From IMG/VR virus record IMGVR_UViG_3300033407_000005, positions 11,735-75,734 of that record: 64,000 nt of DNA; one strand, given 5' to 3'. The translations under genes and the position numbers were made by a program. The notes below the pieces were generated by a model. That model saw nothing but the letters and a program-made list of their open reading frames with translations, was not told the origin of the DNA and searched no databases. Every line of letters begins with the position of its first letter. The first letter of the stretch is position 1. Of the stretch, positions 9,014-28,136 are shown piece by piece. The stretch is from a virus. Its lineage: Duplodnaviria > Caudoviricetes.

Positions 9014-9481
9014 ATGCGCACCAAACGGCTGTCGAAAGAGCAGAAGTTACAGCTCCCCGCAGTGCTGGCCGCAATCGGCGGCGCCGCGACTATCGACGAG
9101 CTGGAAGAGGCATTTCAGGCCGGGCATCGCGCGCTCGACGATCACCCGTTCTCGACGGCTTGGAATGAACGCGGCAACGCGATGCGCGCCCGCGGTTGGG
9201 ATTTGATTGAAGCTGATCCTCAAGGCCACCTGATCCCGCGCCTCGGCGAGCGCCATAAGTTGTCAGTCGCTGGCGAGACGACGCGCGTCGGGTACGGACA
9301 TAACGCCGCCGGCGTGCGGTGGGTTTGGGCTGAAGCCGAAGCGTGGGCTATCGGGCACCTGAAATCGCATGGCGTCGCCGAAGAAACGGCCAAGACCGTC
9401 TGGGGATGGTGCTTTGAATATCCCCATCGCGCTCTAAAGGTTCTTCGCAGGCGAGTGAAAGAACCATGCTTATCCGGTTGA
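9014..9481 (+). CDS. Phage hypothetical protein; its stop codon lies inside a cassette TIR
   Basis: RBS ggaggagg; ends KEPCLSG* within CATGCTTATCCGGTTGA. Confidence 0.65.
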   Translation: MRTKRLSKEQKLQLPAVLAAIGGAATIDELEEAFQAGHRALDDHPFSTAWNERGNAMRARGWDLIEADPQGHLIPRLGERHKLSVAGETTRVGYGHNAAGVRWVWAEAEAWAIGHLKSHGVAEETAKTVWGWCFEYPHRALKVLRRRVKEPCLSG

Positions 9482-9899
9482 CACCCACACTACCTCTAGG
9501 AGTTAGGAAATGTCCGAAACCCGCGAATTTCCGACAGCCGCCATCGCCTCGCTTTCGACAGGCACCTTGCTGTGCAAGTTCAGCGACATACACGAGGCCG
9601 CTGAGTATTTGATGGGCCACCCAATCTGGACGCATCAATTCGCCGATAAGCAGCTTTTCGCTGATATGCGAGCGATGATCATCGAACAGTGCCCTGGAAT
9701 GCCCGCGAGAGACGGCCAAATCACGCCTGAGAACTGGCGCGAGAAGCTCGCCGAGTTGGTCGCGGAATTAGGCCCCACACAGACAATCCGCAAAGGGGCC
9801 GGGTTGACCGCGATGCTGCCGACTGACGGCATCCCAGAGCACGTCGAATTGCTCGTGGTCAATGTTCCTTAAGGGTGGGTAACAACCGGATGAAGCATG
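9465..9899 (+). mobile_element. TIR-bounded single-gene cassette A1 (no transposase)
   Basis: Ends catgcttatccggttgacaccc / gggtaacaaccggatgaagcatg; flanked by gaaagaac at 9457-9464 and 9900-9907. Confidence 0.8.
9510..9872 (+). CDS. Cargo hypothetical protein of cassette A1
   Basis: 120 aa, RBS ctaggag, visibly lower GC than flanks. Confidence 0.8.
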   Translation: MSETREFPTAAIASLSTGTLLCKFSDIHEAAEYLMGHPIWTHQFADKQLFADMRAMIIEQCPGMPARDGQITPENWREKLAELVAELGPTQTIRKGAGLTAMLPTDGIPEHVELLVVNVP

Positions 9900-9907
9900 G
9901 AAAGAAC

Positions 9908-10499
9908 CATGCTTATCCGGTTGACACCCAAGAAACCTTATACCCACTACATCTAGGAGCGGCAAATGAACGTCAAAAAGCTCTACGAAATCCTTCGCGA
10001 GACAACTGTCCAACTGCGCAAGGGTGAAGTTTACGAAGGGACGCCAGAGCTTGTGGAACAAGCCAAGCGTGGCGACGAATTGAAGGGCGGCGGCGTTCTT
10101 GAAGTCTACGCCATGCCTCATGTCGCCGATGCCAATCCCGACATCGAAAAGGTCGATCTCGAATTTCTCGTAATCGGCGTCAATAAGGCCATCGCTGAAA
10201 CGCGTAAGGCCGAATTGATCGAAATTCTTAAGGATTATCCTCAACCGGAGCGCCTTGCGGGCGGCCCGTCCTACATCGAAGTCGGTGCAGAGATCGGCGA
10301 TCAAGGCGCGGCCTTCCAACTTTTTGCGCTCGGGAAAGTGCTCGGGCTTTGGGACGTAATCACGCCCGCGACGATGGGATTCGCGGGCGCGGAAGCGCGC
10401 CAGATGGCAGGCAGCGGTTTTGTCATGATGACGGGCTTCAAAGTGGCGGCCTAGGGGTAGTGGGTATGGGAGCGGTTGGGTGTCAACCGGATAAGCATG
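9908..10499 (+). mobile_element. TIR-bounded single-gene cassette A2, tandem to A1
   Basis: About 50-bp imperfect TIRs; flanked by gaaagaac at 9900-9907 and 10500-10507. Confidence 0.85.
9966..10454 (+). CDS. Cargo hypothetical protein of cassette A2
   Basis: 162 aa, RBS ctaggag. Confidence 0.8.
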   Translation: MNVKKLYEILRETTVQLRKGEVYEGTPELVEQAKRGDELKGGGVLEVYAMPHVADANPDIEKVDLEFLVIGVNKAIAETRKAELIEILKDYPQPERLAGGPSYIEVGAEIGDQGAAFQLFALGKVLGLWDVITPATMGFAGAEARQMAGSGFVMMTGFKVAA

Positions 10500-10509
10500 G
10501 AAAGAACCG

Positions 10510-10824
10510 ATGATGCTGAGCACGCTGGCGCCCCCGTTTCTCGCCGCCGCCTTCGTGCTCGCGGGGTCGCTCGACTACGACCCGCGGATCCTGACGCTTC
10601 GCTGGCCCGACGGCCACGAGGAGCGGATCGCCGCGACCTCGCCCGATACCTGTGCGACGGCGGTCCGGGCGGTCGGGCTCGCCATCTGGCCGGCCGGCCA
10701 GCCGCCGCCGGTCAGCGCGTCGTGCCGGCCCGGGAACGGGTTTGCCGCCGTGGACCGTCAGCCCACGGACTTGATCCGTGGGGCCCATTGCATCCGCGGC
10801 TTCAACTGCGAGCACCCCCGCTGA
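10510..10824 (+). CDS. Secreted or membrane hypothetical protein
   Basis: Signal-like N-terminus; contains a REP hairpin (PTDLIRG). Confidence 0.6.
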   Translation: MMLSTLAPPFLAAAFVLAGSLDYDPRILTLRWPDGHEERIAATSPDTCATAVRAVGLAIWPAGQPPPVSASCRPGNGFAAVDRQPTDLIRGAHCIRGFNCEHPR

Positions 10825-11696: not shown

Positions 11697-12134
11697 ATGC
11701 TGTCGCGGAGTCATAAACTGTTCCACGCGATCGAGGCGGTGCTCGACATCGCCTGCCACCACCCCGCCGCCGTGCGCTCGGCCGACATCGCAAAGCGCGC
11801 CGGGGTCGACGGCCGCTATCTCGAGCCGGCGCTGCAGGCGCTGGCGGCCCACAATATCCTCGCGAGCAAGCGGGGGCGCGCCGTCGGCGGCTACCGGCTG
11901 ACCCGGCCGCCGGCCAAGGTGACGCTCGGCGAGGTGGTGCGCGCGATCCGCAGCCTCGATGCGCCGGTCGCCGATCCGGCAAAGAGCCCGCTCGCCCTCC
12001 TGGTGGTCGGCCCGGTGCTGCGCGAGATCGAGGACACCGAAAACCTCGCGCTCGACAGGATATCGTTCGAGATGCTGTGCCGGATCGCGCGAACAGCCGC
12101 GGCGCCGGCCGGCGATGCGGAGGAGGCGGCATGA
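11697..12134 (+). CDS. Rrf2-family transcriptional regulator (IscR/CymR-like, no Cys triad)
   Basis: AIEAVLDIA...RYLEPALQAL...ILASKRGRAVGGYRL...TLGEVVRAI. Confidence 0.85.
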   Translation: MLSRSHKLFHAIEAVLDIACHHPAAVRSADIAKRAGVDGRYLEPALQALAAHNILASKRGRAVGGYRLTRPPAKVTLGEVVRAIRSLDAPVADPAKSPLALLVVGPVLREIEDTENLALDRISFEMLCRIARTAAAPAGDAEEAA

Positions 12135-13196: not shown

Positions 13197-13212
13197 CATG
13201 CTTATCCGGTTG
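13197..13212 (+). repeat. Solo left end of TIR family A
   Basis: Exact catgcttatccggttg immediately upstream of ORF 13230; no clear partner end. Confidence 0.7.
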
Positions 13213-13229
13213 TCGCTCAACGAGGCTAG

Positions 13230-13721
13230 ATGTTGATGACCAAAAAAGCACGACAATCTCTCATTGATTTCCTGCTGGCGTGTGCCCATCGGCGGGTTGA
13301 TGCGCGGGCGGCGGTTACTCCGTGCTTCTATTACGAGTGTCGCGAGTGCGGCGGCTCTGATCTAAACCGAGAAGATTTGCACGTCCGACCGACGCTCGCT
13401 GGGGTGACGCACAGGCCCAACTGTCTTGTCGGGCAGTACCGCGCTATCGCAGAGAATGACATGCTCACCACGGAAGCAAACACACAACTGATCGCGGAAC
13501 GCGATGCGATGAAGGGGCTGATGAAGAGACGAGCAGTTTTCATTCTTGGACTGTTGTGGAATGCGGCCAAGAAGCAGGAAGCGATTGAGAGAGAAGTCGC
13601 CGGGGAGCGGGAGGCGCGGCACAAACTAGAAGCCGCACTCACCGGGAAAGACAAAGCGATGGGCGTGCTGTTCGAGCGGCTGACAGCTGCGGGCGTCGAT
13701 TGCTCCGACCTGATCCCATAG
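13230..13721 (+). CDS. Phage hypothetical protein with CxxC and coiled coil
   Basis: YECRECGG; coiled-coil C-terminus. Confidence 0.65.
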   Translation: MLMTKKARQSLIDFLLACAHRRVDARAAVTPCFYYECRECGGSDLNREDLHVRPTLAGVTHRPNCLVGQYRAIAENDMLTTEANTQLIAERDAMKGLMKRRAVFILGLLWNAAKKQEAIEREVAGEREARHKLEAALTGKDKAMGVLFERLTAAGVDCSDLIP

Positions 13722-13749: not shown

Positions 13750-14715
13750 ATGCCTGACATGGCCGACAACACGCACATCGGATGGACCGACGCCACCTGG
13801 AACCCGGTGCGCGGCTGCTCGCGCGTGTCGCCGGGCTGCGGCGGCGCCAACCACGAGGGCGGCTGCTATGCCGAGAAGATCGCGGCGCGGTTCTCCGGCC
13901 CGGGCCAGCCCTACGAGGGCTTTGCCCGGCGCACCCCGAACGGCGGCCAGTGGACCGGCAAGCTGGCGCTGGTCGAAGAGTCGCTTGACCTGCCGCTGCG
14001 CTGGAAACGCCCACGCCGCATCTTCGTCAACTCGATGTCCGACCTGTTCCACGAGGCGCTGCCCGACGCGGCGATCGACCAGGTGCTTGAGGTCATCGGA
14101 GCCTGCGACGATCAGGACCGAGGGCATATATTCCAGATCCTCACGAAGCGCGGCGTGCGCCAGCGCGACTACATGCGCAGCGCACGCGCCTATGACGCCT
14201 GGAACCGCCGCTGCATGGCACAGGAGGCATGGCCGCCGCGGAATATCTGGCTCGGGGTCTCGGTCGAGGACCAGGAGCGCAAGCATCGCATCGACGAGTT
14301 GCGCGCGACCCCGGCCGCCATCCGCTTTCTGAGCCTTGAGCCTTTGCTTGAAGACCTCGGGGCCATTGACCTGACCGGCATCCATTGGGTCATCGTCGGA
14401 GGCGAGTCCGGCCCCCGCGCGCGGCCGATGCATCCTGACTGGGCGCGCTCGCTCAGGGATCAGTGCCAGGCTGCCGGGGTGGCGTTCTTCTTCAAGCAAT
14501 GGGGTGAGTGGATCGCCGGCGACGATCTGCCCAGCGAACATCAGGAGGCCGTCGAGCTCGGCGAGCGCCGGCTGCTGACCTATGACCAGGGGCAAAAACT
14601 GGCGGGCCGGCGAGAATATGAATTCCACAGCGACGGCTCGACGCTGATCCGCGTCGGCAAGCACGCCGCTGGCCGGCTGCTCGACGGCCGCGAGCACAAC
14701 GAGTTTCCGGTATGA
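13750..14715 (+). CDS. Phage Gp37/Gp68 (DUF5131) family protein
   Basis: IGWTDATWNPVRGCSRVSPGC...CYA, IFVNSMSDLFH, WVIVGGESG, FFFKQWG. Confidence 0.92.
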   Translation: MPDMADNTHIGWTDATWNPVRGCSRVSPGCGGANHEGGCYAEKIAARFSGPGQPYEGFARRTPNGGQWTGKLALVEESLDLPLRWKRPRRIFVNSMSDLFHEALPDAAIDQVLEVIGACDDQDRGHIFQILTKRGVRQRDYMRSARAYDAWNRRCMAQEAWPPRNIWLGVSVEDQERKHRIDELRATPAAIRFLSLEPLLEDLGAIDLTGIHWVIVGGESGPRARPMHPDWARSLRDQCQAAGVAFFFKQWGEWIAGDDLPSEHQEAVELGERRLLTYDQGQKLAGRREYEFHSDGSTLIRVGKHAAGRLLDGREHNEFPV

Positions 14716-14776
14716 GCAATCACAGCAGCGGGATTCCGGCATGAGCGTGGCGCGCTGTTTCGATTGCGGCCCTGGT

Positions 14777-14915
14777 CGCGATCCGGGCGCTGCTCGGCTG
14801 GTGGGGCGAGCGGACCTGCGATTACGTGAGGCCCGAGACGTGCCGGGCTTATGTGAAGTGGCGGTCAATTGGCGGTCAATTGGCGGTCAATTGGCGGTCA
14901 AGGGACTAAATTTAG
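14777..14915 (+). repeat. Left arm of long inverted repeat, with 4x tggcggtcaat
   Basis: Reverse complement of 16818-16945, which has 3 units. Confidence 0.95.
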
Positions 14916-15130
14916 CCGATAGGCTAAACGATACTAAATATCGGCACGGCGCCGCTTCCACCGCCGGCAGAGAACTCACCGTCCTCCGTACCGCCCTCGG
15001 CTACGCGCACAGGAACGGCAAGCTGATCGACCGCCCGTTCGTCGAGCTGCCGCCGCGCCCGCCCGGTCGCGACCGCTGGCTGACCCGCTCCGAGGCCGCC
15101 GCGCTCTTGTGGGAGAGCCGTCGCGATCCC
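14777..15130 (+). pseudogene. Tyrosine integrase fragment interrupted by an 11-mer tandem array
   Basis: IRALLGWWGERTCDYVRPETCRAYVKWR then, frameshifted, STAGRELTVLRTAL...RDRWLTRSEAAALL. Confidence 0.75.
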
Positions 15131-15185
15131 CATTGCCACGTCGACGTGATCATCGAAGCGATCGACGCGCTGATCGAGATCGCCA

Positions 15186-15695
15186 ATGGCTGAAGCTCTT
15201 CCCGGTTGGCTTGAAGGGCTGAGCCACAAGGACTTCCTCTTCAACGGGTCGACGTGCACCGAGGATGCCTGGGCCAGGCTCGATTGGCATCGCGCCTATG
15301 TCGACATGGGGCCATCGCCGGCGGGAAACGCCGGGCCCTATTGGCACGTCCCGCGACCCTGCGACGAGACGATACAACGGCTCTACCCGAAGGTGCTGCG
15401 CTCAAAATGGCTGCTGCTGATCAGGCGCGCCGTCGAAGAGGCGATCGAGCGGGACCGGCGGCCGGCGGCGGCGCCGAGGACCCCAGCGCCCCGTAATAAC
15501 CTTTCGGCGGCTATCCTGCAGGTATTCGCGAACAACCGCGGCCTGCGCCTCAACAGCGCCACGGTAATAGCGCAACTTCGGCGGTCCCATCGAGGGGTGT
15601 CGGTCAGACAGATTAACAACGCGCTCGATTACCTGAAACGAACGGGCCGCCTGATTCGCGTCGAACGAGGCCGATACGAGGCCGCCAATGGCTGA
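15186..15695 (+). CDS. Hypothetical protein with C-terminal winged-helix-like domain
   Basis: AAILQVF...QINNALDYLKRTGRLIRVERGRY. Confidence 0.65.
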   Translation: MAEALPGWLEGLSHKDFLFNGSTCTEDAWARLDWHRAYVDMGPSPAGNAGPYWHVPRPCDETIQRLYPKVLRSKWLLLIRRAVEEAIERDRRPAAAPRTPAPRNNLSAAILQVFANNRGLRLNSATVIAQLRRSHRGVSVRQINNALDYLKRTGRLIRVERGRYEAANG

Positions 15696-18196: not shown

Positions 18197-19017
18197 GCTT
18201 TGCCCGGGCGGCCGAGCTCTACATCGACTGGCGCGACCCCAGCCGCGCCGATCGGCGGCGCCTGGCGCGGCTCGGGGCCGTCATCGGGCGCCGGATGGTC
18301 GCCGATATCCGCCAGGTCGACCTGGTCGAGGCGGCCAACCTGCTCGCCCCCGACAGATCGGCGGCGACCAGGAACCGCGAGGTCATGCGGCCGGCCGCCA
18401 CGGTGCTGCACTACGCCGCGACGAACGGGTTTTGCCAATGGCTCCGGGTCGCGCTGTTCCGCGAGCCCCGGCCAAAGACGCGGGCGGTCTCGCTCGACAC
18501 GGCGGCGACGCTGGTCCAGGCCGCGCCGGACGGGCCGCGCCGGCTCTTCCTCCTATGGAGCTTTCGCCAGGGGACCCGCATCTCGGACACGCTGCGCGTC
18601 GAATGGGCGCAACTCGACCTGCCGCGGCAGACCGTGCGCATGAAGATCGGCAAGACCGACCGCTGGGCCAAATACCCGCTGCACCCGGAAGTGTTCGAGA
18701 TCCTGGCCGCGATCCCCGCCGAGGCGCAGCGCGGCCGGCTCTTCCCGTGGCGCCAGAAAACCGGTGTCTACGCCTGGCTGCGGCCGATGACCCGCCGGCT
18801 CGGCATCCAGTTCACCCCGCACATGGCGCGCCACTCGCTCGGCACCTGGCTCAACGGATCGGGCGCGGGCCTCCGAACGATCATGGCCGCGCTCGGCCAC
18901 GCCGACGCCAAATCCTCGATCCGCTACCAGGACGCCGATGTCGAGATCGTGCGTGCCGCCAGCCAAAAACTCGGGCAATTATCGGGCGGACCCTTACGCA
19001 AGGCGCAGGGAGGCTAG
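18007..19017 (+). CDS. int: Tyrosine integrase
   Basis: GTRISD, HMARH, LGH and IRY catalytic residues. Confidence 0.95.
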   Translation: MPLKLIPPGQRRGNPFFLLRGSVGGRELEVSTKTADRKAARRFKAEFERALAQDRLPGPGETLSFARAAELYIDWRDPSRADRRRLARLGAVIGRRMVADIRQVDLVEAANLLAPDRSAATRNREVMRPAATVLHYAATNGFCQWLRVALFREPRPKTRAVSLDTAATLVQAAPDGPRRLFLLWSFRQGTRISDTLRVEWAQLDLPRQTVRMKIGKTDRWAKYPLHPEVFEILAAIPAEAQRGRLFPWRQKTGVYAWLRPMTRRLGIQFTPHMARHSLGTWLNGSGAGLRTIMAALGHADAKSSIRYQDADVEIVRAASQKLGQLSGGPLRKAQGG

Positions 19018-27794: not shown

Positions 27795-28136
27795 CATGCT
27801 ATCCGGTTAAGACCCATGAACACGACTGCTTGTGTTTTGTAGTTTTTCTTCCAGATTTTCAACGCGCCTAAGCGCATACATTGTTGGACGCGAAACTGTT
27901 TCGATAGGTCCTGACATAAAAGCCCCTTCACAGGTTATCCCTGCGTCGTGAAGACGCTTACAGATGCAAGAGGGGCAGAGTAAACCGCCCTCGTCGCCAC
28001 TCGGAGAGATACCTCTCCATACCGAAAGGGGAATAATCAAGTCAGGGAAACCATGATCATTTCCATATGGGCGTTTGCAGTCGTGGCACGCGGCATTCAT
28101 CGATCAACTCCTAGTGCCTGTGTGTGACAACCGGAT
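27795..28136 (-). mobile_element. Degenerate family A cassette (A3) in the tail operon
   Basis: Minus strand atccggttgtcacac...ctaggag-ATG...TAA-ccggatagcatgg. Confidence 0.7.
27807..28100 (-). CDS. Cys-rich cargo protein of A3
   Basis: CHDC...LLCPSCICKRL, lower GC. Confidence 0.7.
   Translation of the reverse strand: MNAACHDCKRPYGNDHGFPDLIIPLSVWRGISPSGDEGGLLCPSCICKRLHDAGITCEGAFMSGPIETVSRPTMYALRRVENLEEKLQNTSSRVHGS

Follow-up and report, generated by a model that had tools for sequence, protein, structure and literature searches.

Transposase-less IS1595-type cassettes very probably stacked in a single 8-bp target site of a Caudoviricetes genome

We analyzed a stretch of 64,000 nucleotides of viral DNA (Duplodnaviria; Caudoviricetes; positions 11,735 to 75,734 of the IMG/VR record IMGVR_UViG_3300033407_000005), referred to below as the window, in which two single-gene cassettes, A1 and A2, lie end to end at positions 9457-10507. 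The locus reads, in order, GAAAGAAC, the 435-bp cassette A1, a second GAAAGAAC, the 592-bp cassette A2 and a third GAAAGAAC, with CATGCTTATCCGGTTG as the cassette ends; the A1 and A2 units each open with CATGCTTATCCGGTTGACACCCA and close with its reverse complement. An earlier interpretation made from the letters alone (the sequence-only reading) had described three copies of a spacer and two unrelated genes of low G+C content with no transposase, and this layout is seen as described. The features of the stacked locus are as follows:

9457..9464, no strand: copy 1 of the target-site duplication, GAAAGAAC, assigned by the family rule of 8-bp duplications
9465..9899, plus strand: cassette A1, 435 bp, with its left end at 9465-9489 and its right end at 9875-9899, delimited from the sequence and the end profile
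9496..9502, plus strand: CTAGGAG Shine-Dalgarno motif of A1, in its subterminal region on the left, 7 nt 5' of the ATG
9510..9872, plus strand: passenger gene of A1, 120 aa, DUF7736 (PF24875, E 8e-17)
9900..9907, no strand: copy 2 of the target-site duplication, which is also the 8-nt loop of the end-to-end palindrome
9908..10499, plus strand: cassette A2, 592 bp, with 24-nt perfect inverted ends at 9908-9931 and 10476-10499
9953..9959, plus strand: CTAGGAG Shine-Dalgarno motif of A2, 6 nt 5' of the ATG
9966..10454, plus strand: passenger gene of A2, 162 aa, of no known family
10500..10507, no strand: copy 3 of the target-site duplication

The two passenger genes are unrelated to each other by sequence comparison, and both have a G+C content of 0.56-0.57, as compared to 0.63-0.76 in the flanks. 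Against the end profile, the left end of A1 gives an E value of 4.9e-8 and the right end one of 0.0087, the latter end having diverged and carrying one added G (CCGGATGAAGCATG). The inverted ends of A2 stretch beyond their perfect part to 51 nt, at 82%. The spacer and the left end together form an exact 31-nt repeat (9457-9487 and 9900-9930), AAGCATGGAAAGAACC is found at both 9893 and 10493, and a 15-nt repeat, CACTACNTCTAGGAG, is common to A1 and A2 and lies at the Shine-Dalgarno motif of A2. Where the two cassettes abut, a transcript crossing the junction is predicted to fold into an RNA hairpin (-35.1 kcal/mol, z -8.9).

When the 16-mer of the cassette end was searched as an exact match in IMG/VR, it was found in at least 119 loci and around diverse cargo, so that the search for the same ends around different genes, which had been suggested as a check, gave a positive answer. 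Among the matches listed, to which the counts of elements given below also refer, there are 107 end-bounded units, of which 100 are distinct, with lengths of 241-2685 bp. A perfect 8-bp flanking duplication was seen in 74 of these 100 distinct elements, and a duplication with one mismatch in five more, as compared to none of the 100 in a control shifted by 8 bp. The boundary, which had been left undecided between CATG ends with an 8-bp duplication and CCATG ends with a 6-bp duplication, is thus settled as CATG...CATG. As the sequence of the duplicated 8-mer differs at almost every locus, the duplications should be considered as target-site duplications arising from staggered cuts, rather than as a recombination site. 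The terminal inverted repeat has a consensus of about 25 nt, namely CATGCTTATCCGGTTGACAC(A/C)CACA.

Bacterial genomes carry the same family, in the form of plain insertion sequences (IS) of 1.0-1.15 kb, miniature inverted-repeat transposable elements of 90-250 bp and cassettes with cargo. When referring to these, it should be considered that the 16-mer scan of bacterial-genome contigs is mostly at chance level, as about 280 random matches are expected in 596 Gb, and only the 44 of 120 loci that had paired ends or a transposase were taken from it. In a metagenome-assembled genome of Terriglobia, the left end was seen within a 59-bp unit that is present as three tandem repeats near a contig end (L124:6344-6520; L numbers are our handles for loci). 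In the same genome, copies of the end are numerous at contig ends, suggestive of IS expansion.

The enzyme that belongs to these ends is found in larger members of the family. Thirteen of the listed elements, 1.57-2.0 kb in length, encode a protein of 338-350 aa beside one end. This protein combines the Pfam domains Zn_ribbon_IS1595 and DDE_Tnp_IS1595 (E values down to 6.5e-35) and scores 185-190 bits against the NCBIfam model NF033547, 'IS1595 family transposase', for which the cut-off is 75. Aligning the 13 transposases revealed D156, D237, H272-x6-K279 and E301/R305/R308 to be invariant. Three of the autonomous elements (L014, L075 and L079) have one end each that is identical to that of A2 over 25 nt. 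The IS1595 family has been defined by duplications of 8 bp, a single transposase, a zinc finger at the N-terminus as well as a DDE_Tnp_IS1595 domain (PMC8101967), and every item of this definition is found in the autonomous relatives. For the family of ends as a whole, membership in IS1595 follows from the 8-bp duplication, from the cognate transposase located between the same ends and from the inverted repeats shared with the autonomous copies. As larger elements with the same ends encode an IS1595-family transposase, we consider the window cassettes to be transposase-less derivatives of IS1595.

A cognate transposase, for which a search had been recommended, therefore exists, and it is of the IS1595 type in all 13 elements. 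The origin that the sequence-only reading had suggested for the cassettes, i.e. IS4/IS231, has to be given up, as the autonomous relatives carry IS1595 domains only. A mobile insertion cassette derived from IS4/IS231 was hence rejected as a candidate: neither an IS4-family transposase nor a longer duplication was found, and IS1595 domains and a duplication of 8 bp were found instead. The ISSod11 group of IS1595 in ISfinder has ends of the form nnnGcnTATC and the signature DDHK+ER4R7; the ends CATGCTTATC match this form, and the residues found invariant in the 13 transposases may represent this signature, such that ISSod11 is a candidate subgroup.

The organization of the cassettes can be compared to that of the autonomous copies. 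In those autonomous copies that have passenger genes, the latter are bordered by one end and by the transposase gene, in the same orientation, such that the cargo is upstream of the transposase. For elements with distinguishable ends, we recorded the position of the end with an extra T relative to the largest ORF, which is the cargo gene in a cassette and the transposase gene in an autonomous copy. This end lies downstream of the largest ORF in 28 elements and upstream in 4. Such one-sided polarity, together with cargo located upstream of the transposase, is consistent with a passenger-carrying IS having lost its transposase gene. The transporter IS and the mobile insertion cassette (MIC) are both described concepts, a MIC being a passenger-carrying IS minus its transposase gene (PMC3129680). 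Our cassettes indeed look like transporter IS that lack the transposase gene, i.e. MICs. The more general proposal that these are MIC-type passenger cassettes, mobile and lacking a transposase, was supported.

The cassettes are highly compact. Their 5' leader is usually 33-60 nt long and consists of the inverted repeat and a short subterminal block, often with (C)TAGGAG. As left ends repeatedly show this motif at their inner edge, the proposal that the left end brings a ribosome-binding site holds across the family. At the other side, 25 of 74 single-gene cassettes have their stop codon among the final 25 nt, which belong to the right inverted repeat. The cargo itself is diverse, with 141 ORFs in the 100 listed elements falling into 108 clusters, 94 of them singletons. 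Recognizable products include several DNA methyltransferases, two NADAR proteins, MazG-like, HNH and PAPS-reductase-like proteins, and three TnpB proteins. Each TnpB (OrfB_IS605 with a Cas12f1-like TNB domain) is the sole cargo of a cassette of 1136-1156 bp (L081:695-1750, L094:9836-10915 and L037:1269-2372), and these cassettes therefore represent an RNA-guided nuclease gene placed inside the ends of another transposon.

As for the cargo of the window, the A1 gene matches PHROG families of unknown function and has a homologue of 65% identity in another phage, where these ends are lacking. The A2 gene, as well as a gene at position 13230 that is described below, gave no usable match in Pfam, PHROGs or the ESM Atlas. 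A2 does, however, have 11 homologues of 40-70% identity in other viral contigs, none of the 11 being flanked by these ends. Since the homologues are found elsewhere without the ends, the A1 and A2 genes should be considered as ordinary genes of phages, which the element has picked up.

Given these results, we consider it very probable that the region consists of two separate non-autonomous IS1595-family transposons, i.e. MICs that are moved in trans and were stacked sequentially in one 8-bp target. Each cassette would be made of inverted repeats of about 25 nt, a subterminal Shine-Dalgarno motif and one passenger gene that replaces the transposase. Mobilization in trans would depend on an IS1595-type zinc-ribbon/DDE transposase encoded elsewhere, either in the host or in a co-resident element, which would cut the CA...TG termini and join them to staggered 8-bp cuts in the target. 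The presence of the same ends at many unrelated sites with fresh duplications lends this indirect support. Insertion of a second cassette into one copy of the duplication produced by the first would then yield the three copies of GAAAGAAC. As the ends of A1 are decayed and those of A2 are perfect, A1 was probably inserted first, and A2 would have entered the duplication to the right of A1. Reuse of the site may reflect the fact that GAAAGAAC fits the weak palindromic target described below, that the CATG of the resident element would give the preferred flanking T/A, and that an insertion had already been tolerated there.

The stacking recurs. Exact 8-bp end-to-end junctions were also found in L076, where the junction spacer equals the outer duplication, and in L123 together with its sister contig L338, which comes from another sample. 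All three independent junctions (window, L076 and L123/L338) are head to tail. From the distribution of gaps among about 100 elements, approximately 0.1 junctions of 8 bp would be expected by chance, as compared to the 3 seen. Other small gaps (29, 45, 91 and 106 bp) showed no recurrence across independent phages, both 91-bp gaps (L022 and L042) belonging to one phage stretch. Searching the whole of IMG/VR for intact ends that abut at a distance of 0-30 nt returned none, and a scan of IMG/VR with relaxed termini returned only L123 and its sister L338, thus no new tandem.

The target preference was derived from 72 distinct sites, the logo of which is a weak palindrome, T-n-[RWWYRWWY]-n-A. In a position weight matrix (PWM) based on 68 sites, with the window and the other stacks left out, the reconstructed empty site scores 1.49 bits, i.e. 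the 96.5th percentile of window positions, and the score rises to 4.05 or 5.57 bits, i.e. the 99.4th or 99.8th percentile, for a copy of the duplication that adjoins a resident end. This gain is due to the terminal CATG, which supplies the favored T and A. We also considered whether selection acts against a reactive junction, as one abutting end is mutated in all three stacks; this was rejected as not significant, about half of all ends being mismatched. In addition, a 10-nt unit of the GAGCTGGCTG type was observed to form a long tandem array at the end of the locus of the stacked pair in L123 (L123:4270-4539).

On both sides of the stack, phage genes adjoin the duplications:

9014..9481, plus strand: phage ORF, the last codons and TGA stop of which are supplied by the left end of A1; its homologues differ in the tail
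10510..10824, plus strand: downstream phage gene, intact, starting 3 nt past copy 3 of the duplication; its stand-alone homologues are 79-109 aa in length

Homologues of the upstream ORF, 152 and 240 aa in length, carry other C-terminal tails. The sequence-only reading had claimed that a stop codon in the left end allows the cassette to end the ORF upstream. This ORF does terminate at the TGA of the left end, as claimed, but such capping looks incidental, as the TGA is one variant of a variable position: across the family, G is found in 64% at position 16 and A in 61% at position 17. No close relative of the phage was found in IMG/VR by means of the upstream protein, and the best match to a neighboring gene is 45% identical. 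The G+C content steps from about 0.63 to about 0.75 at the cassette site.

The reconstruction of two successive insertions has several weaknesses that need to be considered. In both other stacks, L076 and L123/L338, the second element shows only its junction end. Precise excision of both cassettes and of two copies of the duplication, which would join 9455-9466 to 10508-10824, would give one continuous frame from the upstream ORF into the downstream gene, uninterrupted by a stop, and this is odd, given that both flanking genes have stand-alone homologues. The empty allele, which had been proposed as a test, was not encountered, and neither was an allele with A1 alone or with A2 alone (IMG/VR and JGI metagenome contigs): the exact 20-mer of the predicted empty allele had no match in IMG/VR, and the 24-mer of the upstream flank plus duplication had none in JGI metagenome contigs. 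The 75.7-kb record, which is 84% complete, holds no IS1595-family transposase, and A1 and A2, if still mobile, must therefore move in trans. Finally, the gain in PWM score is modest. As about 130-400 window positions score equally well, sequence preference alone under-predicts exact stacking, and either selection for insertion-tolerant sites or targeting directed by the resident end must add to it. A weak palindromic target that is improved by the resident end, together with reuse of a permissive site, may thus account for part of the stacking.

The second of these additions amounts to an explanation of its own, in which an end-bound IS1595-type transposase steers newcomers to the adjoining 8-bp duplication, beyond sequence preference and selection, such that head-to-tail accretion of cassettes would be an intrinsic property of the enzyme. 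It draws on the three independent exact junctions among about 100 elements where about 0.1 are expected, on their common head-to-tail order and on the hundreds of equally good sites per genome that the PWM alone leaves. Nonetheless, the cases are only three, insertions would also be concentrated by selection for permissive sites, given how compact a phage genome is, and the IMG/VR scans yielded no intact abutting ends at 0-30 nt and, with relaxed termini, only L123/L338. We thus regard end-directed stacking as possible, if doubtful. An extension of this idea, which we consider unlikely, is that IS1595-type transposases prefer the duplication beside a resident end and so build up cassettes head to tail in phages, with the ends serving as an expression module (Shine-Dalgarno motif at the left, stops in the right end in 25 of 74) and cargo being swapped at ORF boundaries, which would make such stacks a transposon-made counterpart of integron arrays.

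The sequence-only reading had gone further and proposed gene capture by sequential addition of cassettes to a single site, as in an array. Site-specific recombination, integron-like or of another kind, in which single-gene cassettes are captured at one attachment site, would agree with the cassettes being single, compact ORFs, with the imperfect palindrome and 8-nt loop formed by the abutting ends, which is superficially attC-like, and with the presence of a tyrosine integrase in the record. However, flanking 8-mers that are duplicated, and that differ at nearly every locus, are the signature of staggered-cut transposition, and the enzyme tied to these ends is a DDE transposase. The one tyrosine integrase of the record is located about 8 kb away (at about 18.5 kb), no resolvase was found, and the junction is without a GTTRRRY core. 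As insertions are single and at unrelated sites in nearly every member of the family, ordinary DDE transposition is the process to be assumed; no dedicated array-building machinery was found, the array proposal was abandoned, and site-specific capture is very unlikely. The stack could also be an artefact of assembly, in which two phage variants, differing in the cassette carried at this site, were concatenated into a false tandem, and the 31-nt repeat of spacer and end could indeed confuse a short-k assembly. Yet allelic cassettes would yield a bubble and not a tandem, and the A1-specific right end with its extra G is joined through GAAAGAAC to a left end that reads CCATGC and not the CCGATG of the host, a k-mer that must exist in the reads. 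As a comparable tandem was, moreover, assembled independently in two samples (L123 and L338), we regard an artefact as extremely unlikely.

Besides A1 and A2, which we thus continue to read as successive insertions of IS1595-type cassettes, the phage carries further members of the family, to give at least four copies. The 16-mer of the end, with up to three mismatches allowed, occurs 4 times in the window where 0.40 occurrences are expected, and none of 100 shuffles reached 4. The fourth of these occurrences, at 13197, had not been noted in the sequence-only reading, and the end profile adds a fifth and a sixth end, both decayed, at 27795 and 28136. The additional copies are:

13197..13721, plus strand: third family copy, with a left end that is exact over 16 nt and, after it, a 163-aa ORF of lower G+C content (13230-13721); end profile E 1.3e-5
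27795..28136, minus strand: fourth copy, a decayed cassette found by end-profile search

For the copy at 13197, neither the mismatch scan nor the end profile found a right end, and the next gene encodes DUF5131 (13750-14715). In the copy at 27795-28136, one end is short of a T and the other one breaks off after CCGGAT. This cassette contains a 97-aa Cys-rich ORF on the minus strand (27807-28100), the ATG of which is preceded by CTAGGAG, and is situated between two long minus-strand ORFs, neither of which matches any Pfam family.

Elsewhere in the window, an 11-bp perfect tandem repeat, TGGCGGTCAAT, is present in 3.9 copies at 14859-14901, inside an ORF without a family match (14741-15193). The tyrosine integrase mentioned above is of the phage type (PF00589, 69.6 bits) and lies in a 388-aa open frame at about 18530-18940 of the window (G000:C1:30266-30673), with a second, weak integrase fragment directly downstream. 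Given this phage-type integrase, a temperate lifestyle is probable.

Phage genomes are generally considered to contain few insertion sequences. In the present analysis, a single IS1595 lineage accounts for at least four copies in one phage and for at least 100 different cassettes across environmental phages, and our literature search found no paper describing IS1595-derived cassettes in phages. Part of the cargo (DNA methyltransferases, NADAR, MazG-like and TnpB proteins) is typical of counter-defence or accessory functions, and the family thus offers a plausible route by which single accessory genes could pass between unrelated phages, as well as between phages and their hosts. In terms of mechanism, a resident end makes the duplication next to it a better target, such that permissive sites can collect cassettes, and stacking also creates a strong hairpin between the two cassette genes. 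None of these features requires new machinery.

Among the closest known systems is the IS1595 family with its transporter IS (Siguier, Gagnevin and Chandler 2009, to the extent that it is cited in PMC8101967 and PMC3129680), which shares the 8-bp duplications, the inverted repeats and the passenger genes inside the ends. The likeness includes the single transposase of the relatives, with its N-terminal zinc ribbon and DDE_Tnp_IS1595 domain, and the plain bacterial copies of 1.0-1.15 kb. The window elements differ in being transposase-less and in residing in a phage genome, and the cargo of the family consists mostly of small accessory genes of phages that occur singly. In the Bacillus cereus group, MIC231 (De Palmenaer et al. 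2004, as far as cited in PMC3129680) also has IS ends, passenger genes, no transposase, modular cargo and presumed mobilization in trans. It derives, however, from IS231 of the IS4 family, with another transposase fold family and longer duplications, whereas the cognate enzyme of the window cassettes is of the IS1595 type; the earlier link to IS4/IS231 thus stands as an analogy only.

Integron arrays resemble the stack in their head-to-tail cassettes of single ORFs, in the imperfect palindromes between these and in a highly diverse pool of cargo. The window cassettes, in contrast, are without IntI, attI and an attC core, the family inserts by DDE transposition, with a target duplication, at many unrelated sites, and stacks are rare and short. 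In abutted-end junctions of the IS30, IS21 and IS3 types, an element, or a dimer of it, has its own two ends joined as an intermediate of transposition. These junctions are similar in that inverted ends come to lie a few bp apart, but the window junction joins two different cassettes by a full target duplication. The stacked elements are therefore of a known kind, that of the IS1595 family, passenger-carrying IS and MICs, and not a new system.

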